This document shows, in pieces, positions 5,501 through 64,000 of a DNA stretch of 64,000 bases. Made by a program: the position numbers and the translations under genes. This DNA comes from a virus (taxonomy: Duplodnaviria > Heunggongvirae > Uroviricota > Caudoviricetes), in IMG/VR virus record IMGVR_UViG_3300045988_163275, positions 1-64,000 of that record; one strand, given 5' to 3'. The notes under the pieces are model-generated. The model was given only the letters and a program-made list of their open reading frames with translations. It did not search any database and was not told where the DNA came from. Each line of letters opens with the position of its first letter. Position 1 is the first letter of the stretch.

Positions 5501-7180
5501 AGTTTCAAGAACATCGCGTTCAACGATTTTGCCTTCCTGATTCAGTATTCGAATAAAGCAGCCGCCTTTGGCTAACGACACAGGCGCATCGAGTGTGACG
5601 CTGTTTTTGGTAAACGCCACAATTCGACCTGAGTTACGTTTGCCTGCGCGATATTTGTTCTGAATCAGAACGGTTTCACCAGGCATCAAAAATGACGCGT
5701 CTAAGCCGGCAGTAAATGTAATTACATCCGACTCCATTCTGGCGGTATATAAAAGCCACAAACCAACTCGGTGAGCCTGCCCTCGGCTTGTACAGCCAAA
5801 TGCTACGACTTCTGTCTTACGCTCACCATAACGGCGCATTGCGTCCTGATCTTCAACGTACTCGATGTTTTGCTTATAACCGTCCTCCTTGTTGTTGTAG
5901 GTTACGAGCGCAACGGATGGGCGATCTTTACGCGCAGAACCTTTATAGGTAAACAATCCATCTTTGACGTTAGAGTTGGTAAACATCATTACCGGATCTG
6001 ATGGGCTATCCTGCATGATGTTAACCATCCCACCAGCCCAAAACACCATGCCGCGGAATGCTCCAGCAATATCCTGAATTAGCCGGTATGCGTCCTGTCG
6101 ACTGGTGATCTGCGTATTGATTGCAAAGCGTTTCTCTTTGCCACCAAAGCCATCATCGACCTCTTCGTCACAATATCGACCAATCTGGTACAACTGGCCA
6201 AGGTCAATCATAGATTCCGACACATACTGACCAAGGCCATATCGAGCATTGGTCAGCAAATCAAAGAGAATCCACGCAGGGTTTGAAGAAGACAACAGCT
6301 TAAAAGTACCGTCCCATACGCCGACATAAGTATTGGTGTATTCGTTGTAGTTTGACGGTACTCGGATTTTGATACCGCGCACCAAATACGAACGGGAAGG
6401 CATTGTGCTACCAAACTGCTCTGAATTGACCTTCAAGCCAACAAGAGCAGAGTTAGGGTAGTTCATTGGCGTGTCGACAATTTCCCCGATGGAATCCACC
6501 CATGTATCGTTATAGAGATACTGAGTTTTGCTGTCGTCGGTTAGACGTATGACACGAACCTTATATGCACGGCCAGGTTTCGGCAGTTTGAGTTCATAGC
6601 TGCGGTAGTAAACACCTGTCTTCTTCGCTGTCAGTGCAATTTCAACGTCTTTCTCACCTTCAGCAACGACATCGGCAAATGTTCCATCGCCATTGGCAAT
6701 CTGGAACTTGTATTTGACTGTTGTACCGTTGGTGTCGCCGGATTTCTTATCCACGGAACGTAGAGAGGGGAATTTGAGAATGAGTCGAACGCGGTCAGCT
6801 TCATCGTTATCGATGGAGACCGTGACATCATGCGTCTTTTTCAACTGAATGTTGATGGACTTCGGCGTCTCGACGAAATCAAAACCGGCCATAGGCGTCT
6901 GATCTTGCGAACCATCGCGAAAATCCCATGTAATACCGCTGTAGTTTGCAGAGCCGTCTTCATTGAGGATCGGCAGGTCGTCGATAAAAATCGACTTTGC
7001 TCCGTCGACAAGACCGCCAATAGCGCCTTCCCCGAGCAAGTCGAGGATGGACGCCATAGCACGCGAGTTAACGGTATCATCGGCTTCAACCGGCGTGCGG
7101 CTGGAGCTGCTGCTTTTCTTGCCGCCTGCACCTGCGATCAGGAGAGGCAGTCTTTTCTTCTTGAACTGTTCCATGTTCAA
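2600..7180 (-). CDS. host specificity / central tail fiber protein (lambda J-like)
   Basis: 1526-aa ORF directly after I/K/L/M-like genes in lambda order; coiled-coil Ala-rich repeats in the C-terminal half and a distinct C-terminal domain. Confidence 0.85.
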   Translation of the reverse strand: MNMEQFKKKRLPLLIAGAGGKKSSSSSRTPVEADDTVNSRAMASILDLLGEGAIGGLVDGAKSIFIDDLPILNEDGSANYSGITWDFRDGSQDQTPMAGFDFVETPKSINIQLKKTHDVTVSIDNDEADRVRLILKFPSLRSVDKKSGDTNGTTVKYKFQIANGDGTFADVVAEGEKDVEIALTAKKTGVYYRSYELKLPKPGRAYKVRVIRLTDDSKTQYLYNDTWVDSIGEIVDTPMNYPNSALVGLKVNSEQFGSTMPSRSYLVRGIKIRVPSNYNEYTNTYVGVWDGTFKLLSSSNPAWILFDLLTNARYGLGQYVSESMIDLGQLYQIGRYCDEEVDDGFGGKEKRFAINTQITSRQDAYRLIQDIAGAFRGMVFWAGGMVNIMQDSPSDPVMMFTNSNVKDGLFTYKGSARKDRPSVALVTYNNKEDGYKQNIEYVEDQDAMRRYGERKTEVVAFGCTSRGQAHRVGLWLLYTARMESDVITFTAGLDASFLMPGETVLIQNKYRAGKRNSGRIVAFTKNSVTLDAPVSLAKGGCFIRILNQEGKIVERDVLETGENITKVTFSKALSSAETPVLNGVWTITEPDLEPMRVRIVNIAQGETSGSFDITAVENNPSKYEAIDNGATLIPQNTTVLDPTYSKPSNLQITEGTYLSSPGNLSVKLTATWEGKSPEYWISWRRSDANNVSNWQSARVTEEQYEIVNVAENGRYDFQLYAVSFNGKKTEIISTVYKVQGTMTPPDAPTALTAVGDYRNVILNWVNPDSIDLDHINVYASRTNNLDTAKLIAEAASTTFTHAGLGDSETWFYWVRAANKRGMLSQPNSNLGTEAMTKDVLSFLTGKITSSELGQELLEEIDTKASQEAVDVINKQMEESLKSLDDKFTETDQRIEEAQNVLRTEVSNTASKVEEALKEVENSNAALIQLKETVSEQDKAVAGAVEAANAALDNSSALVAEEREARVEGDLANAKEIEAMKSTVDSSLATIEEMKKTVAEVEHSSAEVTTNIEALAKTNIDLALRQDEDQHKQMVSNARIATTQKAFADDMSAMATKMEEIRAEINEDIRASITEETTARVDADNAIGSRITKLESKINDDISAAIVSEQEARASADEALSKEVLSLQAKVEGDISAAISEEKNARATADESLAQQITTLKSQTGKDIKAAVAEETKARTDADSALASNITNLQAQTSKDIHAAITSEATARTSADNALSGRVDTLKASVDGNTATIQQQATAIADTNKKVSTAWTLKMETSTSGGQKYVAGIALGIDTTGLSQFLVQADRFGLVNSVNGKITTPFVIDAGVAYMNGAYIKNGTIDNAKIGNFIQSNDYSSGMTGWHINKNGNSEFNNVTVRGTVYATNGKFTGEIQATSGTFRGTVQADHFVGDVANMYVGNDFSVRYNGTYTMTYTDSSSSALPKNIYVAINVYTGGVGPVAAQFTCNGVTKTATTGKGTTYRDPDLNSTSSTGVGGTLYAAFNNVTSRTVAVTVKVTSSSQTHIYSPVMLISRGSGAFSMSGIS

Positions 7181-7326
7181 AAAATCCTTATTACATAAGC
7201 TGGTCGATGGTGATAGAAGAACTCACAACCTGCGAGCCAACCAAAATTTCCTCTCCATAGATCAGCTGCACCGGGTTTCCTTGGTTAGTGGTGTTCTGCG
7301 GCCCATCGAAATAGAACGAGTCGGAG

Positions 7327-7776
7327 TTATCTGCCTGTCTCGTTAGTGGCTTGCGGAGATATGATTTGCGCTATACCGCCCATCATCAGTGACAAACCGA
7401 GAGGTGCTAAAGCAGGCATCATTACCGCCGATACAACCAACAAAGCGGCTCCTACTACCGTCTGAAACCACCCAAAAGCAGAACCGCCGCTTCCTCGCGG
7501 AACAGGGGTAATGCGGATTTTGGCTATGTTGTCAGACTGCCCCATCATCTGATATTCACTCTCGTCCACAGACCACTTGTAGCCCTGTTTATTGGTGATC
7601 TGGATGTGGTATTTGTCGTAGGTTTTGAGATTTCGCTTCATCCAGGCTTTGAATCCGGGGCGATTAGCCTCAATCAAATCCAGAGCCTGCTTGGTGTTGC
7701 GAACTTTCAAATGCCAATGACGACCAAAATGTTTGGCCATAGGGCCGCCAAGTTGCACATGAACTAACTCAGACAC
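7327..7776 (-). CDS. tail assembly protein (lambda I-like)
   Basis: 149 aa; hydrophobic Gly/Ala-rich C-terminus (GGSAFGWFQTVVGAALLVVSAVMMPALAPLGL); sits between K-like and J-like genes. Confidence 0.65.
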   Translation of the reverse strand: MSELVHVQLGGPMAKHFGRHWHLKVRNTKQALDLIEANRPGFKAWMKRNLKTYDKYHIQITNKQGYKWSVDESEYQMMGQSDNIAKIRITPVPRGSGGSAFGWFQTVVGAALLVVSAVMMPALAPLGLSLMMGGIAQIISPQATNETGR

Positions 7777-8588
7777 TTTTCATCTCCCTTGAGTAAGTCT
7801 CTGTGACGCAGATGGTGCGTCGTATGTTTCTGGTACATGCCGCCGTAATAAGCGCGACAACTCAGGCGGTCGATTTGGTGATGCAGGATCATGCCGTCTC
7901 CGATATACACCGCGCAGTGATCAGGCATTTTCCCGTACTGGATGAAGAAGACATCGCCGCGCTGCGGCTCCGTCCCTGGCGCAAGACGCACAAGCCCTTC
8001 ATTTCGATAGTTATGGTCGAGAATGTCATCATCACCCGTGTACCATGACGGAATATGCAGATGCGCATTCGGGTTCAGCTCGACACCAAACTCTCGTTTC
8101 AGATAGTCGCGACAAAGCATCCAGCAGTCGAAGACGCCGAACACATAGGGTCGGCCCAGATAAGGCATCTCAAAGCCGTCTGGGGTGATCACATTCATTT
8201 CACTGAAGTGAAATGGCGCATCGCCCTCGATGTTCTTGCGAACAGCCAGAATCAGCCACGGAACTTCCGTTGCCTCACATCCGGCGCGGTCGGCGTCTGA
8301 CGCATCAGCAGATTCGTCAGTATGGGAGTGCCAGATGGCAACCACGTCTCCCGCATCTTCCGCAGCGATAATGTCGTCAGCGTGCATAACAAACGTGTTT
8401 TCCGGGTACTCCGACACGTTCCGGGCTTCAATGAAGCGATATTTCTCGCCAGTGGTACGCACCAGAAAGCCACACGCTTCGTTCGGGTAGCGTTTGATGG
8501 CTGTCAGATAGATTTGTTGCATAACGTCCGAGCCAAGCTCAGGGAGCACTTTATTACCCATAACGTGTTGCCCCAATGAACCCGCCAA
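7764..8588 (-). CDS. tail tip assembly protein (lambda K-like; MPN/JAB + NlpC/P60)
   Basis: JAB/MPN-like motif (EACGFL...HSHTDE) followed by NlpC/P60-type Cys context (FDCWMLCRDY); position after L-like gene. Confidence 0.85.
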   Translation of the reverse strand: MAGSLGQHVMGNKVLPELGSDVMQQIYLTAIKRYPNEACGFLVRTTGEKYRFIEARNVSEYPENTFVMHADDIIAAEDAGDVVAIWHSHTDESADASDADRAGCEATEVPWLILAVRKNIEGDAPFHFSEMNVITPDGFEMPYLGRPYVFGVFDCWMLCRDYLKREFGVELNPNAHLHIPSWYTGDDDILDHNYRNEGLVRLAPGTEPQRGDVFFIQYGKMPDHCAVYIGDGMILHHQIDRLSCRAYYGGMYQKHTTHHLRHRDLLKGDEKCLS

Positions 8589-9252
8589 AGTGGATTACGC
8601 CATTGGCAAAGTAGTTGCGCCGTGCGTTGCATGAGTCGTAGCGTTTCGTGCAGTAATCCGCGCCTGACATGGTGGTTTGCTGGTTGTTTTTGTCGAAATA
8701 TGGGCCGGTGTAGCCGCACTCTGGGCCGCGGTATTTCCACGGGCAGGTGTTTTTGATGATCTGGCGGTACGGCAGCTGCACGCCCATCAGATCGAACACA
8801 CTCGACAGCTCAAACTCGACGACCTCATGGGTTTCGAGAGTCTTCTGTTCGATGAACCACATCTCATCCGGGAAGTGCTGATTTGGATCTGCGGTTGGAT
8901 TCCCGTCTTTGAAGTTGGCCTCGTCGAGAAAACGCGCCAGTGTCATCTTGCGGATGATGCGGCAACCTACCAGATCGTCGTTTGCCTGAACTTCAGCGGA
9001 GACAGTTCCGGCAAAGTTGGAGACCTGGATTTTTGGACGAGGCAAAGTACCCTGACCAGTCTTATCAAAGCCTGACGCTTTGATTGGCCACGGTTCGTAG
9101 GACACGCCTTGCCAAACAACCGGCTCCATCAGTTCGTTTGTACCAGCGTGGAAATATAGCTTGCCTCCAGAGGTGGTGTTCGACATATCAAGTTCGAACA
9201 GTTCAATGAGCGCGGAGGGCGACAAGCTCTGAATATCAGCTTTAATACCCAT
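8554..9252 (-). CDS. minor tail protein (lambda L-like)
   Basis: Conserved C-terminal Cys cluster (CPWKYRGPECGYTG ... CTKRYDSCNARRNYF); start moved to Met12 of the track ORF, which has RBS AAGGAAG and lies downstream of a terminator hairpin. Confidence 0.8.
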   Translation of the reverse strand: MGIKADIQSLSPSALIELFELDMSNTTSGGKLYFHAGTNELMEPVVWQGVSYEPWPIKASGFDKTGQGTLPRPKIQVSNFAGTVSAEVQANDDLVGCRIIRKMTLARFLDEANFKDGNPTADPNQHFPDEMWFIEQKTLETHEVVEFELSSVFDLMGVQLPYRQIIKNTCPWKYRGPECGYTGPYFDKNNQQTTMSGADYCTKRYDSCNARRNYFANGVIHFGGFIGATRYG

Positions 9253-9269
9253 TGTTTCTTCCTTGAAAT

Positions 9270-9298
9270 AAAAAGGCGCCAACATCCTGTCAGCGCCA
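9270..9298 (-). terminator. terminator/attenuator hairpin between M-like and L-like genes
   Basis: Minus strand GTGGCGCTGACAGGATGTTGGCGCC followed by TTTTT, then RBS of L. Confidence 0.55.
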
Positions 9299-9309
9299 CA
9301 ATGATAGTA

Positions 9310-9328
9310 AATTAGTACTTACTTATCC
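9310..9328. repeat. TAAGTA-type palindrome
   Basis: aattagtacttacttatcc; between M and L, directly before the terminator hairpin. Confidence 0.5.
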
Positions 9329-9334
9329 AGATAC

Positions 9335-9670
9335 TTAAGCCTCAAATACTTGTCTGAATGTAGCAGTTAAGACACAGTACCCCTGATATCGCTTGACCGT
9401 ATGACTGTCACATACAACTACAATCTGCTTGCCTCTTGGATTAACCCAATAGAACGATTCAACGCCTGATCGCTCAGTCAGGAAGTCATCGATTGCATTA
9501 ATTTCGTTGTATGATCTGGTAAAGGTTAACGACCATTCTTCTTTAATACGATTAAGACCTTGAGCCTGTCGCTGCTCGTAGTCATCACCAAAATTAAGTA
9601 CCGTTACATTCGGTTTTACGCTTTTTTCAGATTCGTAATCTGGATACCAATTAAACGTTTGTCTTTCCAT
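9335..9670 (-). CDS. minor tail protein (lambda M-like)
   Basis: 111 aa ORF immediately downstream of the tape measure gene, as in lambda. Confidence 0.7.
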   Translation of the reverse strand: MERQTFNWYPDYESEKSVKPNVTVLNFGDDYEQRQAQGLNRIKEEWSLTFTRSYNEINAIDDFLTERSGVESFYWVNPRGKQIVVVCDSHTVKRYQGYCVLTATFRQVFEA

Positions 9671-9712
9671 CTCACATCCTTGTGAGACTGCCCCGGTCGG
9701 GGCAGTCGATAG

Positions 9713-12700
9713 TTAGTTACGTTGAGTGTTTGGGTTGAGTGATCCGCCAGGGCGTTTCTCTTGAGCGATAGTCTCAAGCGCGATTGCTTTCATCCGTTGA
9801 GCGGCATTGTTCCATATGCTTTCTGTATCGCCAGATTCAGTTGTGCTACCGTCACTATGGACGTTGATCTCAATTGATACCGGAGAAAGAACATTTCCTC
9901 CTCCACTCATACCATCGGTACTGAGCGTTACAGGGATTGTTCGACCATCAGGCAATGGAACATACGCCTCATTCATAGAACCTTCCCCAAACAACGCTAA
10001 TTGAGGCGAGTTAGCAATACCGCCTTTCTGGTATGCCCGGAGCGGGATCACGCCGTCTTTTCCGAATATTCCTCCATTTGCAAACTTCGGGATTGCAGGA
10101 ATGCCTTTAGTTCCGTCAGCCACACTGCTGGTTGCGGTTTTAGCAGAGTTTGATGTCGCGCTGTCGAAACCACCACCTGCCCATACTGAAACCAACCCAG
10201 ATGCAACTGTCGCGCCGAAATTCAACCACTTATTACCAGAGCCGGAAGCATTAGCTCCAAGCATTGCGAACGCGGCAGACAGAGCACCGGTAACAGAGCT
10301 GAGGTTCTGCATCGAGAAGATGGAATCCTTCACTGCTTTTGTCTCAGCATCTTTGGCTTCGGTGCTATCAAATAGCCCTGATACCCAGCTACCAATCGCA
10401 TTTGTTGCTGTGCCAATTGCGCTGGTGGTCTGCTGTGTCGTTTGCCCCAATCCAGTTACCGAACTGGACGTCTCCTTCGTGGCTTCTCCTACCGACTTGT
10501 CGCCATTAACAGTGTTGCTTATGCGCACACCTTGATTGGCAACTGCGGAAGCAACCCCGGTGAGCAAATTACCACTCTGTGAACTACCAGCTGCGGTGGT
10601 TCCCATCCCCAACATGTTCATTAGAGGCAGCGTGATCTGCGACTTCACGACCATATTGGTGATATCTTTCAAAATGGACTGAGACAGGCTGGAGAAGCTC
10701 ATCTTCCCGTTAATAACGAAATCAGTCAGGACATCCGTTAAGCCACTAAACAAATCAGTCCAGGTGCTTTCGATCTGCTCTGCCAGGTTTTCGTATTCCA
10801 GTGCCAACTTCTGCGTCGCAGTCCCCGTCTCTTTAATAAGCGCGGTATTGCCAGCAGCAATCAGTTGATTGATTTTCTTTGTATAAAGCGCCACAACTTT
10901 AGGATCAGACGCCTTATCACGAAGTTCTATCAACGCTTTGAGATTGCGGTTGTAGGTGTCTTCGAAATCAGCAACTTTCTCTTCGCGAGACGGCGTATAG
11001 CCAGCACTAATAATGGAATCCGCCTCCGGTGCCCAAGTGGAGATCATCTGCTCAACATTGCGGCGATTAAACATCTCGCGATATTCAGGTATCGCATTTT
11101 TAAGGTCTTCAAGACGTTTTTTCGCCTTGTCGATCATCTCTTGAGTGATGAACTCGTTAGGAACCGCATTAGCCAAATCAGTCAGCGATTTCGTTGTATC
11201 GCGAAGAGACTGATCAAACGATACCGTAGCCTTAGAGCTTTCACCCATTTGCCCCATAAGCTGATCGGCTTTATCCAGAGCCTTCTGATATCCGGCCGCC
11301 AGTTTCTGTTGCGCTGCCTGTTCTTTCTTGGCCGCACGCTGAGAAGCATTGGCTGTACGTCGCCCGGCTTTTTCCGCTGCTGCGGCATCCTGTTCGCGCG
11401 CTTTGGTCAGCGCTGCAATGGCTGCGGCGCGTTCCGCATCGCTCATTTTCTCCAGAGAGCTGGCACTGGATGCTTTCTGCAAATTAAGCTGCGTCTTGAG
11501 TTGTTTAGGCCCAATAATCGGCTTACCTTCGAAGTCCATCATCGGAGTGCCGTCAGGCAAAGTACGCTGATAAGTCGCAGAATCCATCTGGTTTCGCATA
11601 TATTGCGCCAGCGCCTTCTGAGCAGCTTTATCAGTTGTACCTAACCCAAGAACAGTCCCCTGGTTTGACATTACGCCCTTACCAGTTTTGGCCGCATTAT
11701 CTCTCTCGAACTCTGCCTGAGTCAGCTCCTGAGCAACGGCTTCCAAATGCTCCTGATAACCACGAATACTGCCTTGCAGTTTCTGGATCTGCTCGGTATT
11801 GCCATCTTTTTTGGCTTTTTCAAGCTGATCATTAAGAGTCGCGATTTGCTTCTCGGTCGCATTCTTACGAGAAGAAAGTGAATCAACCAGTTTTTGCGCA
11901 GGCTCCAGATAGCTTTTGTTTACCGTTTCACGTAACGGTGCCAATAGTTTGTTCTTTTCGTCATCAGAAAGTGAATCGTCATCATTGATTTTTTGGATCT
12001 TCTCCAGAGCCTCTTGACGAGCTTTAGCGAATGTTGCCGCAAAGTCTCTATTCTCTTCCCGTATTTTCTCTATCTGTGATTCTGCCGCATCTTTTGCAAG
12101 ACGTTTGGCTACAGCAGTGTCTCCGCGTTCAATTGCCCCAGTAGTTTTATCGCGTTTCTCACGAAGGTCATTTAGCTCATTTTCTATACGCTTACGTTCA
12201 TCCTGATTAATCTTTACTGTAGTTCCGGCCATACCCGGCCCATAAACCACCTTTTCGCCAGATTTTAACTCTTGTTCCTTTTGCGTGATTTGTTGCTCAA
12301 GACGCGCTTTATACTCCGCCATTTGTGCACGTTTGGCCGCCGTCATCGCCTCTGGTATTTTCCTAATCTCGTCAACGACTTTTGACGTTTCGCTGCGAAG
12401 CATGGTCATATACGTGATCAGCCCGGCCACGGCTACGGTTGCCACGGTAAACGCAGCGCCAATTGGATTTGCTGCAATGAACGCCGTTAATCCAGCAAAA
12501 GCGCCTTTAAGCCCCGTAATCGCCCCACGGATGGCGAAAATAAGAGAGGGGATCGGAGCCAGCCCCATACGTGCCGCACGATTGAATCGAGTTACTGCTG
12601 TAGCGCCGAGGTTAAATGGAGTCTGTATGGCGGTCGCCATCGTGGCAAAGGTGCTAACCATCTGGCTCCCAGCGCCAACTACCCCCATGATCCCTGCTCG

Positions 12701-41706: not shown

Positions 41707-41728
41707 ATTAGGTAAGTATTTACCTCTC
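41707..41728. repeat. TAAGTA-type palindrome
   Basis: attaggtaagtatttacctctc; between the methyltransferase stop and 41664 start. Confidence 0.5.
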
Positions 41729-43412
41729 ATTTAACGCGTTTAAAAACGTATACGCTGACAGTAATCCCGGTGTCTTCAAACATGTTAGTAAACGACTTCC
41801 CTTTGGCATAAACGTAATTATCCAGCGTCATCCAGTTTAGAATTGGCGCGTCGCCCGGCAGCACTGCTACCAGACGCCCACCGACTTTCAGATGTCCCAG
41901 CGCGGCCAACGTGTGCTCTCTGTGACGGCCAAGAGAGTAGGGCGGGTTCATGACGATTTTGTCGAACTGATAACCTGCGTTGTCCTCAGACCACTTCATG
42001 AAGTCGCAGCAGACCGTATTTGTGTACCCCTTGCCAAGCAGGATATCAGCGAAGAGAGGTGCGACTTCTATGCAGGTAACGTCTTCCGGATTGGCGTCGA
42101 TGCAGGCCAGCAGATCTCCGCGCCCGGCTTCAGGCTCCAGCAGCTTCTCACCTGGCTTCAGCTCGATGGCTCTGGCAACGTACTCCGCTATCAAACGCGG
42201 GGTAGGGTAGAACTGGTGTGATTTTGTATCCGGTATTAAGCCGGTGGCCACAATCGTATTGAGCGTATGGCCGATCTCATACGGGAACTGCCAGTGCTTG
42301 TTCTCCTGCACGCCGCCAATAAAGCTCAGTGTACGCTCCAGCTCTTCCACCTGTGACTTCTGAAGACCGGAATCAGAGAAGTACCATACGCGTTTGTCAT
42401 TGCCAGATCGCCCGTCGCGAAGCGCAGTACGCACCGGCTCGGAGATCGTCTTCTGGATTAACCCGAACTGTTTTGGTGCCCGTGTTTTGGGCGCAGTACG
42501 ACATGGAGCCGGGATTGCAGCGGGCATACTGTAAGCCAGCACCTCATTCAGCTTCCAGGCTACGTCAGGATGTATTTCAAAGTGAACGTTGCCGTTCTTA
42601 AACATCTTCACACGCATCAGGTTTCCGTCGACATTCATCCAGTCGCCGGTCTGGCAGTCATTTGCTCGATACGCAGCTGACAGCATCTCGGCCGTGCGGT
42701 TGATGGTGATAAATTCTTTGTGTGCAAAGAAATGCAACATGACGCGCAGGTCGTCTATGTAATCCTCTTTCCGGTAGTTAACGCTGACGCTGTCCCGCCA
42801 GAAATCGGAAATGCAGTCGGCGATGATCAGACGCTCGCTGAAGCCGTTCGTCTTATTGGTCTTGTGAGCAGGACTCAACGCCTTAAACAAGCCATACACG
42901 CGCTCAGAGAGATATTTGTGCCTGTCATTCAGCAAATTAAGCATCGTTGGTATGACCGTTTCTGCTTTGAACTCAGGTACACCAACGAACTCTTTAACCT
43001 TCATTTGATAGCCAGTTCTGTCAGTCTTGATCGTTTCCTGCTTGCCCTCGATAAACTGTTCACGCCACTCGTCGCGGCGGGATGCTGGCATGATCAGCAG
43101 AACGTTGGTCATATCCGTGACCTTCTTCCAGTACTCGGCCCAGATATTTTGTTTCACCCATTCCAGGTCGACTTTGTCCAGCCAGGTTCTGTTAAAGCGT
43201 GTGCGCTCGTCGTCCGGCCGGTGGTTAAGTCGCAGTAGACGGTTAATCATGTTGTGGCGTTCGTCGCCATAAACGAAGTCGTGAACCTTATTCATGAACG
43301 CAATCTCTTTCTCGCATTCGGCCACAATTTCGTGGATAACATTCATTTCCTGCCGGTAGTCAATACCGGTGTCTGGAGTGATAGAGTCAATGATGGAAAG
43401 GGCTGTATTCAT
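41727..43412 (-). CDS. DNA methyltransferase (N6-adenine/N4-cytosine type) with large N-terminal domain
   Basis: C-terminal methyltransferase motifs: motif I (LLEPEAGRGDLL) and motif IV (VMNPPYS); about 390-aa N-terminal region of unknown function; true ATG at MNTALSIIDS; promoter plus palindrome module upstream. Confidence 0.7.
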   Translation of the reverse strand: MNTALSIIDSITPDTGIDYRQEMNVIHEIVAECEKEIAFMNKVHDFVYGDERHNMINRLLRLNHRPDDERTRFNRTWLDKVDLEWVKQNIWAEYWKKVTDMTNVLLIMPASRRDEWREQFIEGKQETIKTDRTGYQMKVKEFVGVPEFKAETVIPTMLNLLNDRHKYLSERVYGLFKALSPAHKTNKTNGFSERLIIADCISDFWRDSVSVNYRKEDYIDDLRVMLHFFAHKEFITINRTAEMLSAAYRANDCQTGDWMNVDGNLMRVKMFKNGNVHFEIHPDVAWKLNEVLAYSMPAAIPAPCRTAPKTRAPKQFGLIQKTISEPVRTALRDGRSGNDKRVWYFSDSGLQKSQVEELERTLSFIGGVQENKHWQFPYEIGHTLNTIVATGLIPDTKSHQFYPTPRLIAEYVARAIELKPGEKLLEPEAGRGDLLACIDANPEDVTCIEVAPLFADILLGKGYTNTVCCDFMKWSEDNAGYQFDKIVMNPPYSLGRHREHTLAALGHLKVGGRLVAVLPGDAPILNWMTLDNYVYAKGKSFTNMFEDTGITVSVYVFKRVK

Positions 43413-43421
43413 GATTGCACC

Positions 43422-43482
43422 ATTAAACAAATTGTTTTCTTATTGGTGTTATTTTCTCAAAGCTAAAAAGGCGTAAAAGCAG
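43422..43482 (-). promoter_or_regulatory. promoter plus palindrome module
   Basis: Minus strand: GCTTTTACGCCTTTTT...GAAAATAACACCAATAAGAAAACAATTTGTTTAATGG, upstream of the methyltransferase gene. Confidence 0.55.
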
Positions 43483-43552
43483 CATTCACAGGCGTTGCAG
43501 CTGATTTAAGACGTAAAAAGGGGGCTTTCGTCCCCTGTACGCAGGTGAGAGA

Positions 43553-44125
43553 TTAGTGGTGTACGTGCTGCGTTTTGTACGGCTGTTTGTTCAGGTTGTG
43601 GCGGTGCATAAGCTCGCGCATCATGTCTTCAAGACGGCTCTTGGTGTCGTCAAGCTGGTCGGCCATTGCCCCCAGCAGCTGGCGAAGGGCCATCGGATCG
43701 TCGCTGTTCAGCTCAGGCATTTTGAACCCAGCCTGGGAAGACATCAGTTTGAAAGCGGCCAGCAACATCGCCAGAGAAGACTTCAGCCCGGCGATTTCAT
43801 GATCTTTGCTGGCGTTGGTTTCATCTGCCTTGACTGAATCCAGTGAGCACTTCGGCTTGCTTACCATTTCCAGAGTTGCCTGAAGTTTGTCGGCGCGTTC
43901 TTTCTCTTCCAGATACGCTTCGCCGAAATGACGCGCCAGCATCACAATTTCAATCGGATCATCAATCATGCTTGAGAACTTGAGAACGCTGAAAAGGCGG
44001 TCAATAGGGGAGGCGTCGTCTTCGTGACCAACCACAAGACCCATGATCTCAACCAGTTCGGCCGCACCAACTTTTTTAATCACGCTTTCAACTTTGGCAT
44101 TAGTTTTTTTGCATTTTTCACACAT
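43553..44125 (-). CDS. hypothetical protein
   Basis: 190 aa, N-terminal CxxC (MCEKCKK); promoter plus palindrome module upstream. Confidence 0.45.
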   Translation of the reverse strand: MCEKCKKTNAKVESVIKKVGAAELVEIMGLVVGHEDDASPIDRLFSVLKFSSMIDDPIEIVMLARHFGEAYLEEKERADKLQATLEMVSKPKCSLDSVKADETNASKDHEIAGLKSSLAMLLAAFKLMSSQAGFKMPELNSDDPMALRQLLGAMADQLDDTKSRLEDMMRELMHRHNLNKQPYKTQHVHH

Positions 44126-44141
44126 GTGTTCTTCCTTATGC

Positions 44142-44205
44142 TTTTAAACAAGTTGTTTTCTTAATTGTTTAATTGTCTCAAATTCTATGATGATGTGAAG
44201 AGTTG
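44142..44205 (-). promoter_or_regulatory. promoter plus palindrome module
   Basis: Minus strand: ...ACAATTAAACAATTAAGAAAACAACTTGTTTAAAAG, upstream of 43553..44125. Confidence 0.5.
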
Positions 44206-44333
44206 CATTAAGGCGAAAAGACACGCAAAAGGAAAAATCAGGCATACCAGACATTTATTTAAAGTGGCATTCATAGCAGAATGTTCTCATTGCCGAAGTT
44301 CTATTCAGACGTCAGTCCCTAAGAGAGAGCAAA

Positions 44334-45293
44334 ATGTTTGGTAATCTTTTCAAAACGGAAGAAACTAAGGCCCGGGAGGGCTTGGAGTCTCATTATCAGA
44401 AAGTCATGAGCTTCGTTGCTGAAAATGATCTACATGAAGCATGGGAAAAAACACGCAATATCATTTTTCGAAATATGGAAGTTAGAAGCTACATCACGCA
44501 AAACGGCGCGTTCGATCGTAACGATTTTTACTATAAGTCAGCCAAAGAGAAGCTTATTCAAAGCGCCTTCACTTCATACCTACTCATAAAAGTTTTACCT
44601 CAGTTCTATGAAATGCATCTCACCACTTTGAAAAGAAAAGAAAAAACACTCACAACACAGGATGAATACGGGGTCTGGAACTTTGACAAGTGGTTTGATG
44701 AAGTAGACTACTTTTATGACAAGGTAGTAAAAGAGAAAGTTTACGATTGGATCGAAGAGAACACAGGCCGGCTCAACAACCTTTGGTTGGCAGAGTCGGA
44801 GGACAAGAATGCCTGGGGGCGGCCAGTTTACTTTAAATTCCAGTTGCCTGAACAATTTGATCGCTGCGCAATAAATCACATTATGACGGTGGTAGACAAT
44901 ACACCAGAACCTGAATTACCTGAGTACACTTCGCTACTGACCGGGCACGAATATGAGCATTTTGTCGCTGGGGAGTTTATGAAGTATGGATCCGACACCC
45001 AAGTAACTAAGGGCAGCGGCGATCACGGTCTGGATATCCTTGTAACCTATAGAGAAGTTCGAATGGCTGTTCAGTGCAAACACTACCAGTCTAAAGTAGG
45101 CAACAAAGCTATTCAGGAAGCATTTTCCGCGAAACAGTTCTACGATTGCTCCCTCGCAATAGTAGTCAGCAACAGCGAGTTTACCCCTCACGCCAGACAA
45201 GCAGCCAAAAAACTGGACGTTTATCTGTATCACCATGAAGATATACACTTAATAATAGACGCCATTAATAATTGGCTGGATGCGCCGGAGTGA
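44334..45293 (+). CDS. Mrr-type restriction endonuclease domain protein with novel N-terminal domain
   Basis: C-terminal PD-(D/E)xK Mrr-catalytic pattern (GHEYEHFVAGEFMKYG...GSGDHGLDILVT...VQCKHYQSKVGNKAIQEAFSA...VVSNSEFTPHARQAAKK); aromatic-rich N-terminal region of about 200 aa. Confidence 0.65.
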   Translation: MFGNLFKTEETKAREGLESHYQKVMSFVAENDLHEAWEKTRNIIFRNMEVRSYITQNGAFDRNDFYYKSAKEKLIQSAFTSYLLIKVLPQFYEMHLTTLKRKEKTLTTQDEYGVWNFDKWFDEVDYFYDKVVKEKVYDWIEENTGRLNNLWLAESEDKNAWGRPVYFKFQLPEQFDRCAINHIMTVVDNTPEPELPEYTSLLTGHEYEHFVAGEFMKYGSDTQVTKGSGDHGLDILVTYREVRMAVQCKHYQSKVGNKAIQEAFSAKQFYDCSLAIVVSNSEFTPHARQAAKKLDVYLYHHEDIHLIIDAINNWLDAPE

Positions 45294-45328
45294 AGATTGA
45301 GGGGCTAATGCCCCCCCCTATTCGTCGG

Positions 45329-45517
45329 TTAAAAGAACCCGAGGATGCCGCCCACTGGAACAATGAAAACTCCCACGACACGCGCAAGTGTCACTCCGGC
45401 ATGAGACTGGAGATCGCCATCGTTCACAAGTTTCACCAGATTCATGATCCAGCCGCTAAACAAAAAAACGGTAAAGCCAACAATCATCAAGGTGAATTTC
45501 TGGAAGTTCCATTTCAT
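45329..45517 (-). CDS. small two-helix membrane protein
   Basis: 62 aa with two hydrophobic helices (FTLMIVGFTVFLFSGWIMNLV; VVGVFIVPVGGILGFF); ATGA-coupled to the upstream ORF. Confidence 0.4.
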   Translation of the reverse strand: MKWNFQKFTLMIVGFTVFLFSGWIMNLVKLVNDGDLQSHAGVTLARVVGVFIVPVGGILGFF

Positions 45518-45771
45518 ACAATAGCCTCAGTCACAGCAGAAGGAAGATCCGGAGTCGCAGGTCGAGCTGGAATCGTGTCCATCAGCATCCCATCCAGAGA
45601 GACAGGAGGTCGTTCGGGCAGGGGGGTCATCTGCAAGGCCGTGGTGGCAGTGGAAGTAGTTGTGCCCGGCATCAAAAGGCTCTGACCGGCTGGTACGGTA
45701 ACCGCTGCCAGAGTTGCCAAAATCACTCCGTAGGCCATTGGCTTCAGTCGATTTCGTTGAAAATTTTCCAT
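45514..45771 (-). CDS. secreted Pro/Thr-rich small protein (embedded ORF)
   Basis: Start at MENFQRNRLK with RBS AAGGA; signal-peptide-like segment (MAYGVILATLAAVTVPAG) then Thr/Pro-rich tail; lies in another frame inside the 3' half of ORF 45527..46120. Confidence 0.35.
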   Translation of the reverse strand: MENFQRNRLKPMAYGVILATLAAVTVPAGQSLLMPGTTTSTATTALQMTPLPERPPVSLDGMLMDTIPARPATPDLPSAVTEAIV

Positions 45772-46120
45772 GAGAACTGTCCTTGTGTGTCCGGGTTTCA
45801 CGCAAAACACGAGAAGCAACGCTATTACGCACCTTCTCCATGCCTACTGTCGTGCCCAGATTAGCTATGGCGGTAGCTTGCGCATTAATGCGCTTCTCCA
45901 GTTCAAACACTCGTTCTTCCAGTTCCGCAAGGCGTGCGGAAACACGACCACTAAACAGCTCGGTCAGCACCAGGCGAATTGAACGGGGACGTTTATTGAA
46001 AGAAGTGAAAGACGTTTGACGGGCCATGTGGATTCCATTCAGTGTCAGAAAGAGTTGCGGCTGGCCAAGCCGCCTTTTGGCGTTCCATCCTGGAACCGTA
46101 CCTAACCGGTACTTCGTCAT
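45527..46120 (-). CDS. hypothetical protein with coiled-coil segment (overlaps embedded ORF)
   Basis: 197-aa ORF; N-terminal half protein-like with coiled coil (RLAELEERVFELEKRINAQATAIANL); C-terminal half low-complexity and overlapped out of frame by 45514..45771. Confidence 0.25.
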   Translation of the reverse strand: MTKYRLGTVPGWNAKRRLGQPQLFLTLNGIHMARQTSFTSFNKRPRSIRLVLTELFSGRVSARLAELEERVFELEKRINAQATAIANLGTTVGMEKVRNSVASRVLRETRTHKDSSHGKFSTKSTEANGLRSDFGNSGSGYRTSRSEPFDAGHNYFHCHHGLADDPPARTTSCLSGWDADGHDSSSTCDSGSSFCCD

Positions 46121-46152
46121 CCTGACGATTTATAAGATACCTGATTTATTAT

Positions 46153-46174
46153 AGTAGGTAAATACTTACTTATC
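46153..46174. repeat. TAAGTA-type palindrome
   Basis: agtaggtaaatacttacttatc; between rnhA stop and 46120 start. Confidence 0.5.
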
Positions 46175-46177
46175 TTT

Positions 46178-46774
46178 TTATGACAAAAACCCAATGTCAT
46201 GCTTGTGAGGCATATCAGCTGCGGAATAGGCGGCGATCTTCGCCAGACGGTCACACATTTCGTTCTCGCGATGACCTGCATGGCCTTTAACCCACTTCCA
46301 GCGGACATTATGACGACTGGCGGCCGCGTCGAGACGTTTCCAGAGATCCACGTTTTTGACTGGCTTCTTCTCAGACGTGATCCATCCGTTACGCTTCCAG
46401 CCTTTCATCCAGAGCGTCATGCCGTTTTTAAGATACTGGCTGTCGGAATGCAGGATCACGTTGCAGGGGTACTTCAGACGCTCCAGCGCAATCAGGGCGC
46501 CCATCATCTCCATCCGATTGTTGGTCGTGCTGTGGAAGCCCTCAGAAAGCTCGCGCTCTTCGCCTCGATACTGGAGAACGATGCCGTAACCGCCCGGCCC
46601 GCCCGGATTTTTGAGGCAGGAGCCATCACTGAATACTTTTACGGTTTTGAGCTGGGGATTGAACTCGACTACGGGTGTGTTGAAATTGGTACGGGAATGC
46701 TGGTGGGTTTGGCATCTGGCTTTAGACTTCGTGCGGCAGCCAGTGCGTTGCCGGACTGGGTTCTTGGTCGTCAT
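46178..46774 (-). CDS. rnhA: ribonuclease HI
   Basis: Close match to E. coli RnhA pattern ([20 protein letters not shown]...[12 protein letters not shown]...[11 protein letters not shown]...[10 protein letters not shown]...[18 protein letters not shown]); about 40-aa basic N-terminal extension; RBS GGAG. Confidence 0.85.
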
Positions 46775-47350
46775 TTTGGCTCCAGAATCGTGCGCCGCGA
46801 CGATTTTTGTTTTCTCGCGCGTGTGCGCACGCGTGCGTGTAAATAATAAAAAATTTTATAAAAGAAAAACTTACTTCCCAGAACAGGTTTTAATAAAACC
46901 TGAACTGAACGAACGAAGTGAGTGAAGTTCACCTCGAACGAAGTGAGAGGTTGTCTTTTCAGGTAATACTCTCCCAGGGAGGTGAGTACAAAATTTCCTC
47001 ACCAACCTGGTCGTTTCATAACCTGAAAAGTTATGACCTAAGTCTACTGCCAGCTTAGGCTTGGGAAGTTATGGATGACAGCACCCCAGAACCGAGATCT
47101 TCCCACACTTTATGAAGGGGAGTACTGGAATCAACCTCTCGAAACACTCCAGACTCGACAATCATAAAGTGACCCTTCTCTCTGCTCACTTTGGTTCCCC
47201 CTTCCCCAACCCCTAAACGGTGCTGGTTCTACGCTGGTAGTGAGCTTTTTTAAACCTGACGCCAGTGACGCAATCCCCCACCCATCAGGTCGAGCTGCCG
47301 AAAGTATCCGGAAGCGGATAGATTGTATCACTGGTTAGTGGCGCTTTGAA

Positions 47351-47368
47351 TGGTAAGTACTTACCTAT
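47351..47368. repeat. TAAGTA-type palindrome
   Basis: tggtaagtacttacctat; overlaps the stop codon of 47368..47598. Confidence 0.5.
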
Positions 47369-47598
47369 TATATTGATTGATTAATTTCTCGCCCATGCAG
47401 CTGGACATTCAGAGCAAACACCTCATTGATCAGCTCACCCAACAACTGCTCCACCAGTTCTATGTGCTCGCCTGAATGAAGACACTTGAGCGACCATTCG
47501 TAGAGACTGAAAGCCTTATCGCGATCTTTCATCATGTCGCGTATCTTGGCCAGAAAATCGCTCTCAACGAGCGCTACGACGTTCGTCGGGTATATCAT
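47368..47598 (-). CDS. hypothetical protein
   Basis: 76 aa ORF downstream of the 17-bp IR hairpin element. Confidence 0.4.
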   Translation of the reverse strand: MIYPTNVVALVESDFLAKIRDMMKDRDKAFSLYEWSLKCLHSGEHIELVEQLLGELINEVFALNVQLHGREINQSI

Positions 47599-47714
47599 GA
47601 TAATTTTCCTTACTGTGGTTCATAAAATCGATTCTAGAGCGTCTGGAGAGGGACTCCAGTGGGTTCTGGAGGTGTAAAACGGTCTGGGAGTTGTTTGGAA
47701 ATCACGTCTTAAAA

Positions 47715-47795
47715 AGCCTGCGTCTGTATATATTAATAATTAGTACTTAGTTATTTATATATACGGAAGCAGGTTCTCAAACTAACTCCCAGACT
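47715..47795. repeat. 80-bp element: 17-bp inverted repeat around a TAAGTA-type palindrome (copy B)
   Basis: CCTGCGTCTGTATATAT ... ATATATACGGAAGCAGG then TTCTCAAACTAACTCCCAGAC; right arm identical to copy A; immediately 3' of dam. Confidence 0.7.
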
Positions 47796-47800
47796 GGTGT

Positions 47801-48394
47801 TTACGCTGCCTTTTTACGTGGTCTCTTCTTCCTGACAACATTGGCAGGGTCATAACCACCCAGCTTTTTCATCACCGCCAGCGGTATCTTGCTGATGGTG
47901 TGCCCAGCTTCCTGACAGTAGCCACGGAAGATAAGCAACATGCTGCCACCAGGGTTGATGTTCACCTCCACCAGCCCAAGTTCAACATCCGGCTCAACGA
48001 ACGCCACGCGGCCGCCAGACAAGATGACGGTTTCGTTGGCGCATTCAGCCGCACGCTCGTACCACTGCGTATCGAGGGATTGTGGTATCAGCATGACCGT
48101 CGTCACTCCACGCGCCTGCTCGCGAATGGCTGCGTCTATCCAGGGGGTGATTTTGGAGTAGGGCGGGTTAAGGAACGCCACAGTGCCAGGTTCTCCCCAA
48201 CTGCACTTGAGCGCATCACGCTCAACACCGATAAAGTTCGGCAGGAGAGCATTATCTTTGTTGCAGGCGACGTCCACATCGAACTTTACGCCTATGTAAC
48301 GTTGGATGGCGACAAACAACCACTGCGGTGTGCGCCAAAGGTCGCGAAGAGAGGCATCACGCTCTCGCTTTTTGATTTTTTCGGCTGCGATCAT
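47801..48394 (-). CDS. dam: DNA N6-adenine methyltransferase (phage Dam-type)
   Basis: NPPY motif in context FLNPPYSKITPWIDAAI; about 197 aa as in small phage Dam enzymes. Confidence 0.75.
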   Translation of the reverse strand: MIAAEKIKKRERDASLRDLWRTPQWLFVAIQRYIGVKFDVDVACNKDNALLPNFIGVERDALKCSWGEPGTVAFLNPPYSKITPWIDAAIREQARGVTTVMLIPQSLDTQWYERAAECANETVILSGGRVAFVEPDVELGLVEVNINPGGSMLLIFRGYCQEAGHTISKIPLAVMKKLGGYDPANVVRKKRPRKKAA

Positions 48395-60883: not shown

Positions 60884-61069
60884 AATTCTTGTTCAAATAA
60901 TTTTGTCCGGGGCAACGATAACGGATAAGGCGCACCGGAGTTTGCAAATGCCTGTTTACTTATTCACTTTATTCACAGGCCCGATCCAATATTTAGATCC
61001 CCAGAGAGATCCTACAGAAGATCAAAAGAGATCCCCGATCGTCTCCAGCGCTTGCGGTTACTGGCTTGA

Positions 61070-61590
61070 GAAGGGGTTACTATCCACTATAGGGAGCAAA
61101 ATAACCACTGTAGAGAGCATAATAACCGCTATGAAGAGCAAAACAACCTCTCTGGAGAGTAGTCGGTATCCACTGTAGTGAGTAGGAGACAATGTTTTAA
61201 CTGGATAACTCCGAGCCTGTTTTTCTGCGGCAGATGGCTGATATTCTTGGAAATATTGTAAATTTTGCGTTGCGGCGTGTTTATTTCGATCACACATTAT
61301 CCCCAGAAGGGGAGTGATGCCTGATTTTGTAATTATCTGATTTTTATACACAGGCCCGATCCAGTAATTCAGATCCCTGTTAGAACCAAAGAGAACCACA
61401 AAGACCCAAAGAGATCCCCGGACCCTGCAAACCGTTGTGCCACATGGCTTTAGAGGTTATCGATATCCACTATAGCGAGAATAACAACCACTATGGAGAG
61501 TAAATCAACCACTATGGAGAGTAGAAAAACCGCTGTAGGCGGTAGGATAACCACTGTGATGGGTGCTACTATCCACTGTAATCAGTAAAG
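61070..61590 (+). repeat. origin iteron arrays upstream of repA
   Basis: About 11 direct repeats of roughly 20 bp (TATCCACTATAGGGAG, TAACCACTGTAGAGAG, CAACCACTATGGAGAG ...) in two clusters (61076-61185; 61460-61585) separated by an AT-rich segment; GATC clusters at 60990-61040 and 61350-61420. Confidence 0.8.
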
Positions 61591-61625: not shown

Positions 61626-62681
61626 ATGAGCGTAAACGACAATAAAAACATTGCGATAAGCGAAGCATTTTCCGAAACAGACAAAAAGACCGGCGAAGTT
61701 GTTACGTTAGTTCCTAACACCAACAACACAGTTCAGCCTGTTGCTCTGATGCGTCTTGGTCTCTTCGTTCCGACGCTGAAATCGACATCCAGGGGTAGAA
61801 AGGGGCAAATGGTCTCTATGGACGCCTCCGCTGAACTCAAACAGCTGTCTCTGGCCAAAGCCGAAGGGTACGAGGATATAAGGATTGCTGGTCTTCGTCT
61901 TGATATGGATAACGATTTCAAAACATGGGTGGGCATCATCCACGCGTTCGCCAAGCACAAGGTTGTTGGTGACACCGTCACGTTGCCGTTCGTCGAGTTC
62001 GTCAGACTTTGTGGCATACCAACAGCCAGATCGTCCGCGAAGTTACGTAAGCGCCTGGACAGCTCTCTAAGTCGTATCGCCACAAACACCATCTCATTCC
62101 GCAGCAAAGGCTCTGAAGAGTATTACGTTACGCACCTTGTGCAGACGGCAAAGTACAGTACCAAGAATGACACGGTCGAACTGAAGGCCGATCCTAAGAT
62201 TTTCGAACTTTACCAGTTCGACAAAAAGGTGCTTTTGCAACTTCGGGCCATCAACGAACTCTCCAGAAAGGAATCCGCGCAGGCGCTCTACACCTTCATT
62301 GAAAGTTTGCCACCAGACCCGGCGCCAATCTCATTGGCTCGCTTACGCGCCAGACTTAACTTAACCAGCCGCACCATTACCCAGAATGCGACAGTCAGGA
62401 AGGCGATGGAGCAACTGCGAGAGATCGGCTATCTCGATTACACTGAAGTGAAACGCGGCAGCTCGGTCTACTTCGTCATCCACTATAGACGGCCGAAGTT
62501 ACGTTCGGCACTGCCGCCATCTATGGCCACGCCTGAAGATCCAGAAGATATCTTGCCAGGTGATGATCCGGAGGACATTATCGATGTTGCTCCTGAAGAA
62601 AAAGACGGGGAAATGGTCATGTTGAGCAAGGAAGAACTGGCGATTCTCGAAGAGCTGCGCAAGGCAAAGGCTCGCAAATAG
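61626..62681 (+). CDS. repA: iteron-binding replication initiator (P1/RepFIB-type RepA)
   Basis: N-terminal [21 protein letters not shown] and central [78 protein letters not shown] resemble RepFIB/P1 RepA; flanked by iteron arrays. Confidence 0.85.
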
Positions 62682-63995: not shown

Positions 63996-64000
63996 ATATT

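Follow-up and report, generated by a model that had tools for sequence, protein, structure and literature searches.

Two likely orphan DNA adenine methyltransferases in the core of an SSU5-like phage-plasmid, one carrying an N-terminal DUF4942 module

DNA adenine methylases of the gamma class, such as HsdM, TaqI and the Eco57I-like enzymes, bear a signature that combines a motif X of the form F-Y-x-T-P with NPPY. In M.TaqI, M.BseCI, CamA and the HsdM proteins of Type I systems, target recognition is the task of a C-terminal domain or of a distinct S subunit. The phage Dam family (PF05869/TIGR01712) includes M.EcoVT2Dam and the Dam proteins of T1-like phages. Phage SSU5 and the SSU5-like phage-plasmids of E. 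coli, Salmonella, Klebsiella and Enterobacter carry two methyltransferase genes, annotated in SSU5 as SSU5_095 and SSU5_088. Here we analyze their counterparts in a 64,000-nucleotide stretch of DNA (positions 1 to 64,000 of the IMG/VR virus record IMGVR_UViG_3300045988_163275; the window), where they encode proteins of 561 and 197 amino acids (aa). Are these enzymes orphans, and what do they modify? The reading that we prefer, and consider likely, is that both are orphan DNA N6-adenine methyltransferases of the phage-plasmid core with a self-protective or epigenetic function, for which a mechanism is proposed below.

The locus departs little from its described relatives. The region that holds both genes (41727–48394) is 98.4–98.5% identical to E. 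coli plasmids, for example pYLPI6a, which is typed as IncFIB and non-mobilizable, and 94% identical to Salmonella phage SSU5. SSU5 and the SSU5-like phage-plasmids share its gene order, and their proteins are 89–99% identical to those of the window. Because the remainder of the 64-kb window matches the same SSU5-like elements, the whole is part of an SSU5-type phage-plasmid. SSU5 carries a Rha/Ant anti-repressor where the window encodes an Mrr_cat nuclease; no other feature distinguishes the two. Both methyltransferase genes sit in a conserved early DNA-metabolism block, surrounded by genes for DNA replication and nucleotide metabolism, and no other open reading frame in the window that reaches 120 aa contains a motif IV of the form [DNS]PP[YFWH]. 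Model matches and the annotation of relatives agree with the reading of both as methyltransferases, as put forward in an initial annotation made from the sequence alone. That interpretation was largely right, except that it overstated novelty: two orphan methylases are an ordinary, catalogued phage-plasmid feature already annotated in SSU5, and proteins 99% identical to the 561-aa protein are already in NCBI. A scan of the region for promoters and terminators performed no better than on shuffled sequence.

The large open reading frame extends from 41727 to a TTG at 43430, and the ATG at 43412, which is the start of the homologues, yields the 561-aa protein. Its C-terminal part contains HQFYPTP (aa 399–405, motif X), LEPEAGRG (aa 425–432, motif I) and NPPY (aa 489–492, motif IV), the latter two having been picked out by the initial annotation. 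In an alignment of 31 homologues with identities down to 32%, the residues Q400, F401, Y402, P403, P405, P427, A429, G430, G432, N489, P490 and P491 are invariant. The order X-I-IV is that of the gamma class, and the catalytic half has a Rossmann-like methyltransferase fold; the AlphaFold2 model of the protein, built from the 31-sequence alignment, reached a mean predicted local distance difference test (pLDDT) score of 83.4. Sequence models point in the same direction. The PADLOC methyltransferase models MTase_II, oMTase and mad2 match the catalytic half with E values of 1e-14 to 1e-10, phrog_6263 ('DNA methyltransferase') matches the protein with an E value of 4e-296, and the family profile retrieved M.TaqI from among the PDB sequences (E 1e-3). 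Unlike M.TaqI, M.BseCI, CamA and HsdM, however, the 561-aa protein stops some 70 aa beyond NPPY (the chain ends 69 aa past the motif) with no C-terminal target-recognition domain, and a 390-aa module without a known fold precedes the catalytic domain.

Which of the characterized methylases of mobile elements comes closest? The methyltransferase domain matches internal segments of PHROG families of 1.2–3.9 thousand aa and of a 'DarB-like antirestriction' gene. DarB of P1 likewise has a gamma-type adenine methylase domain, and is used by a phage-plasmid against restriction. We nevertheless rejected membership of the 561-aa protein in the DarB group: BLASTP returned an E value of 0.25, only motifs X and I align, and the helicase is not matched. 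The setting also differs, as darB adjoins the portal gene in P1 whereas the 561-aa gene lies in the early block. M.EcoGIX and M.BceJIII are also orphan methylases of mobile elements, encoded in plasmid leading regions; they have been proposed to protect incoming DNA, and are beta-class enzymes with DPPY whose substrate during conjugation is single-stranded DNA (PMC7736820). A relation to these was rejected as well, since they belong to the beta class and their architecture is not homologous. Assignment to the bifunctional Type IIG/IIL restriction-modification (R-M) enzymes fared no better: aa 1–395 gave no N-terminal nuclease match, and the C-terminal domain is absent.

The initial annotation had described the N-terminal extension as a large domain of unknown function and called for its domain analysis. 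The extension is real, but it is not anonymous. Residues 140–295 match the catalogued Pfam family DUF4942 (PF13708) with an E value of 1e-20 and a score of 74.5 bits (cut-off 25), and Pfam finds DUF4942 in all 18 of 18 diverse homologues. The 561-aa architecture as a whole forms a large family already on record. The module, about 390 aa in total, is composed of a helical region, DUF4942 and a small alpha/beta sub-domain. Across the 31 homologues, ten DUF4942 residues are invariant (H183, T185, N186, D221, R223, D262, G263, H277, H281 and P282) and D283 nearly so. Parts of the protein recur elsewhere: aa 329–560, comprising the sub-domain and the methyltransferase, within a 1259-aa PHROG family, and aa 130–302 as the stand-alone 299-aa family phrog_38825. 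The SRL island of Shigella and SPI-3 of Salmonella are also listed as holding genes with DUF4942 only. Because a fold search with the whole protein gave matches to the methyltransferase domain only, aa 1–395 were modeled alone and subjected to a fold search of their own. Neither this search nor Pfam yielded a nuclease fold or nuclease profile, and the N-terminal alignment profile, run against PDB sequences and Pfam, retrieved nothing but DUF4942. Among solved structures, the N-terminal module has no counterpart.

The fusion is widespread. When residues 1–395 were compared with 1.84 billion representative proteins, 615 clusters (defined at 50% identity) were found at E <1e-3 and 156 at E <1e-30. 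Among the best 150 of the 615 clusters, nearly all measure 500–580 aa and thus have the same fusion architecture; we argue from this conserved architecture that the two halves work together. Members occur in SSU5-like elements across the Enterobacterales, including Xenorhabdus, Providencia and Morganella, in phages of Pseudomonas, Aeromonas, Vibrio and Marinomonas, and in a helicase/primase element from metagenomes. In the two phages examined in detail, the methylase is found among early-region genes (exonuclease, anti-repressor, NinB, NinG). GenBank labels the orthologues of Pseudomonas phage Dolphis (3228–4916), phage Jeremy and Aeromonas phage ST4 'RE endonuclease', and the matching region of phages MR13 and MR15 'restriction alleviation protein'. 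These labels are inconsistent depositor annotation without a supporting domain.

The initial annotation had also reported a second, small Dam-type enzyme with NPPY, and this stands. The 197-aa protein, with NPPY at aa 76, passes both curated cut-offs of the phage Dam family: 127.8 bits against 28.1 for PF05869 (E 4e-37), and 111.8 bits against 97.05 for TIGR01712, the NCBIfam model phage_N6A_met (E 2e-32). It is 100% identical to its SSU5 counterpart over aa 1–187. Identity falls to 38% for Dam of Stx phages, among them 933W, and to about 31% for homologues from T1-like phages. A member of the same family, M.EcoVT2Dam of the Stx prophage VT2-Sa, targets GATC (PMC6602927). At this divergence GATC specificity is a prediction, and the 197-aa enzyme probably acts on this site.

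Could methylation of GATC serve the element itself? The window contains 278 GATC sites and does not avoid them (observed/expected ratio 0.82). Six of these are packed into 58 bp at a roughly helical-turn spacing, where about 0.25 would be expected from the window average of one per 230 bp; the GATC clustering at the repA origin that had been mentioned initially is thus borne out, and the cluster lies beside the iteron-like repeats. The arrangement of GATC cluster, iterons and repA resembles P1 oriR or a RepFIB-type origin. At P1 oriR and at oriC, initiation is controlled through the methylation of such clusters by Dam. By analogy with these origins, a link between the phage Dam and replication is a reasonable proposition. 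The same can be said of the roles in general that the initial annotation put forward: anti-restriction, methylation of the origin, or regulation of late genes.

We propose that the two enzymes would act as follows. In any host, the phage Dam would keep the 278 GATC sites of the element, the six next to the iterons of repA among them, in the fully methylated state even while replication proceeds faster than the host Dam can follow, and it would also guard the DNA from cleavage by enzymes specific for unmethylated GATC. The 561-aa enzyme would mark the DNA of the element with N6-methyladenine (m6A) at some motif, and this would confer host-independent protection from restriction on entering new Enterobacterales hosts. 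Because its catalytic domain is devoid of a C-terminal recognition domain, we infer that the N-terminal module may supply DNA binding and target choice. More tentatively, DUF4942 might be a new kind of domain, either an N-terminal target-recognition device of an unclassified methyltransferase architecture or the seat of a second activity, and the family a widespread instrument by which mobile elements counter defense or set epigenetic marks, its specificity being unusual (broad or context-dependent); we regard this wider view as rather unlikely.

In accordance with orphan status, no linked, co-inherited cognate endonuclease was found for either methylase within the window. The two conserved flanking genes of the large methylase gene, of 190 and 229 aa, match no nuclease model of Pfam, NCBIfam, PADLOC or PHROG. 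When the neighbors of the large methylase in the window were compared with those in four distant contexts (a 92-kb phage-like contig, the helicase/primase element, phiPSA1 and Aeromonas phage 56), none was shared. In IMGVR_UViG_2671180357_000002 (1–2168), where the large methylase gene is 100% identical, the conserved 190-aa upstream gene was not matched by tblastn in 2.2 kb of upstream sequence; an insertion or rearrangement may account for this.

The one candidate partner, a nuclease gene between the two methylase genes, encodes a stand-alone PD-(D/E)XK protein with an Mrr_cat domain. The initial annotation had called it modification-dependent and not a cognate partner. The former label wants support: the Mrr_cat domain stands alone, and Pfam detects no Mrr_N winged-helix reader over aa 1–200 of this 319-aa protein. 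The nearest PADLOC model is the candidate PDC-S02, at the same domain position. The latter view holds. The gene lies on the strand opposite to that of the methylases, and its guanine-plus-cytosine (GC) fraction is 0.43 as compared with 0.51–0.55 for its neighbors. Of the 705 PLSDB plasmids with the region, seven have the gene, and it is absent from all 80 IMG/VR viral loci. About 99% of the relatives with both methylases thus do without it. The Mrr_cat nuclease is rare accessory cargo, not the partner of either methylase. A 70%-identical homologue (6001–6969 in E. coli chromosomal contigs) shares a small island with genes for an integrase, a DUF5906 protein and a resolvase, and no methylase lies close by; it has the look of a stand-alone defense candidate that consists of a single gene.

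The nuclease gene occupies a variable cargo slot (Table 1), which we charted in viral contigs; a scan of viral contigs with the homologue alignment gave SSU5-like loci only and so added nothing to the range of contexts. In the 80 related viral contigs the slot holds a 141-aa gene, a 271–280-aa gene, both, or nothing (163–169 bp). The position of the 141-aa gene corresponds to that of an annotated TerB-family protein in related Klebsiella phages, and the position of the 271–280-aa gene to that of the annotated Rha/Ant regulator in SSU5 and related plasmids.

Table 1. Features of the 64-kb window. Positions are those of the window; residues refer to the encoded protein.
Feature	Residues	Position	Strand	Remarks
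Tail, portal and terminase genes		1–25 kb
Helicase, ParB-like and small genes		25–42 kb
Conserved flanking gene	190 aa	43553–44125
Conserved flanking gene	229 aa	40975–41664
DUF4942-methyltransferase fusion gene, including stop codon	561 aa	41727..43412	-	Orthologue of SSU5_095 and of an S. Typhi protein that a source names 'YdiA'
Minimal class I N6-adenine methyltransferase domain	aa 396–561	41730..42227	-	Motifs X, I and IV
Small alpha/beta sub-domain	aa 329–395	42228..42428	-	Found together with the methyltransferase domain in further families
DUF4942 core, alpha/beta module	aa 140–295	42528..42995	-
Variable cargo slot		44126..45328		Between the conserved 190-aa gene and a 62-aa gene (45329–45517)
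Stand-alone Mrr_cat (PD-(D/E)XK) nuclease gene	319 aa	44334..45293	+	PF04471, E 2e-21, aa 202–303 only
Phage Dam-family N6-adenine methyltransferase gene	197 aa	47801..48394	-	Orthologue of SSU5_088; PF05869, TIGR01712
Nucleotide-metabolism genes and repA		48–64 kb
Six GATC in 58 bp, spaced 7–13 bp		60983..61040		Directly upstream of the iteron-like repeats
Iteron-like repeats, about four		about 61060–61180		Consensus roughly AACCACTGTAGAGAGCA
repA		61626–62681	+	Annotated in relatives

The claim that no cognate restriction endonuclease is present needs one qualification: it holds for the window, and not necessarily for the whole replicon. The closest relative, pYLPI6a (NZ_CP074043), carries a complete Type I R-M system at 3668–11618, comprising hsdR, a DUF4268 gene, hsdS and hsdM, about 2.6 kb downstream of repA. 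A system at this place would fall beyond window position 65200, and the window ends at 64000. Because this Type I system possesses an HsdM of its own, it would not be a partner of the two methylases.

The sequence of the window bears on restriction in another manner. Hexameric palindromes are strongly avoided throughout positions 1–64000: among those with an expectation of at least 4, 22% show an observed/expected ratio below 0.3, in contrast to 0.46% of the non-palindromic hexamers. Eleven 6-bp palindromes are missing altogether, including GGTACC (11.1 expected), CCATGG (9.1), GAGCTC (8.4), CGTACG (7.7) and CTCGAG (7.6), AAGCTT occurs once where 16.2 copies are expected, and CTAG is rare (15 versus 62). 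This avoidance indicates passive evasion of Type II restriction; escape from restriction is therefore under selection in the element.

Three other explanations compete with a pair of orphan DNA methyltransferases. One or both enzymes might be the modification half of an R-M or other defense system, whose partner would be the Mrr_cat protein, a flanking hypothetical gene or a Type I system. A PD-(D/E)XK nuclease gene does lie between the two methylase genes, the methyltransferase domain does resemble mad2 of the MADS defense system (the other MADS genes were not searched for), and pYLPI6a does have hsdR, hsdS and hsdM near repA. We hold this explanation to be highly improbable all the same, given the scarcity, low GC content and opposite orientation of the Mrr_cat gene, whose homologues stand alone elsewhere, and the lack of any neighbor of the large gene that is conserved across distant elements. 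The Type I genes of pYLPI6a, besides including their own hsdM, are separated from the methylases by repA. It is somewhat less improbable, though still a small chance, that the 561-aa protein is bifunctional, with DUF4942 as a second catalytic domain such as a nuclease, making it a compact Type IIG/IIL-like R-M enzyme or another DNA-processing enzyme. The invariant polar residues H183, T185, N186, D221, R223, D262, H277 and H281, together with the near-invariant D283, suggest an active or metal site, DUF4942 also exists as a stand-alone protein, and depositors of the phages Dolphis, Jeremy and ST4 chose the label 'RE endonuclease'. That label is unsupported annotation, however, no nuclease model of Pfam, NCBIfam or PADLOC matches, and a C-terminal recognition domain in the style of Type IIG is missing. 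A self-restricting core gene adjoining replication genes in hundreds of elements would, moreover, need matching protection of every new host.

The substrate, too, might be a different one. METTL5, which forms m6A in 18S ribosomal RNA (rRNA), is the best structural match in the fold search with the whole 561-aa model, with PH1948, KsgA/Dim1 and Erm enzymes among the top matches, and the catalytic domain is as small as in enzymes of the METTL5, KsgA and Erm type. The score against Pfam N6_Mtase (PF02384), 16 bits, falls below the gathering threshold of 20.4. A methylase of RNA (rRNA or transfer RNA adenine) or of protein, with a function in host takeover, would be compatible with these findings, but the combination of motif X and NPPY points to DNA methylases, every significant sequence match is to a DNA methyltransferase model (PADLOC, PHROG), and the gene resides among genes of DNA replication and nucleotide metabolism. 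We consider such a substrate as improbable as a bifunctional enzyme. Several observations nonetheless weigh against our preferred reading, that of two orphan DNA adenine methyltransferases. The sub-threshold N6_Mtase score is one of them. The occurrence of DUF4942 without a methyltransferase (phrog_38825, SRL, SPI-3) fits poorly with a mere recognition domain. For the 197-aa enzyme, GATC specificity is not certain at 38% identity, and since the hosts already have Dam, a GATC-specific phage Dam would be partly redundant. Lastly, our literature searches on DUF4942, SSU5, pHCM2 and phage-plasmid methyltransferases retrieved no activity or specificity data and no functional study for the DUF4942-methyltransferase family.

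What does this pair of enzymes mean for the elements that carry it? The locus represents no new kind of system. Its value lies in pointing to an abundant methyltransferase family that is apparently biochemically untouched and has an N-terminal module without structural precedent. Isolates of E. coli, Klebsiella, Salmonella and Enterobacter from clinics and farms commonly contain SSU5-like phage-plasmids, and phage-plasmids carry antibiotic-resistance genes (PMC9600943). Knowledge of the motifs that the two core methylases protect would help to account for the passage of these elements from one genus to another in the face of restriction, and would also help to interpret unassigned m6A motifs in the methylomes of carrier strains.

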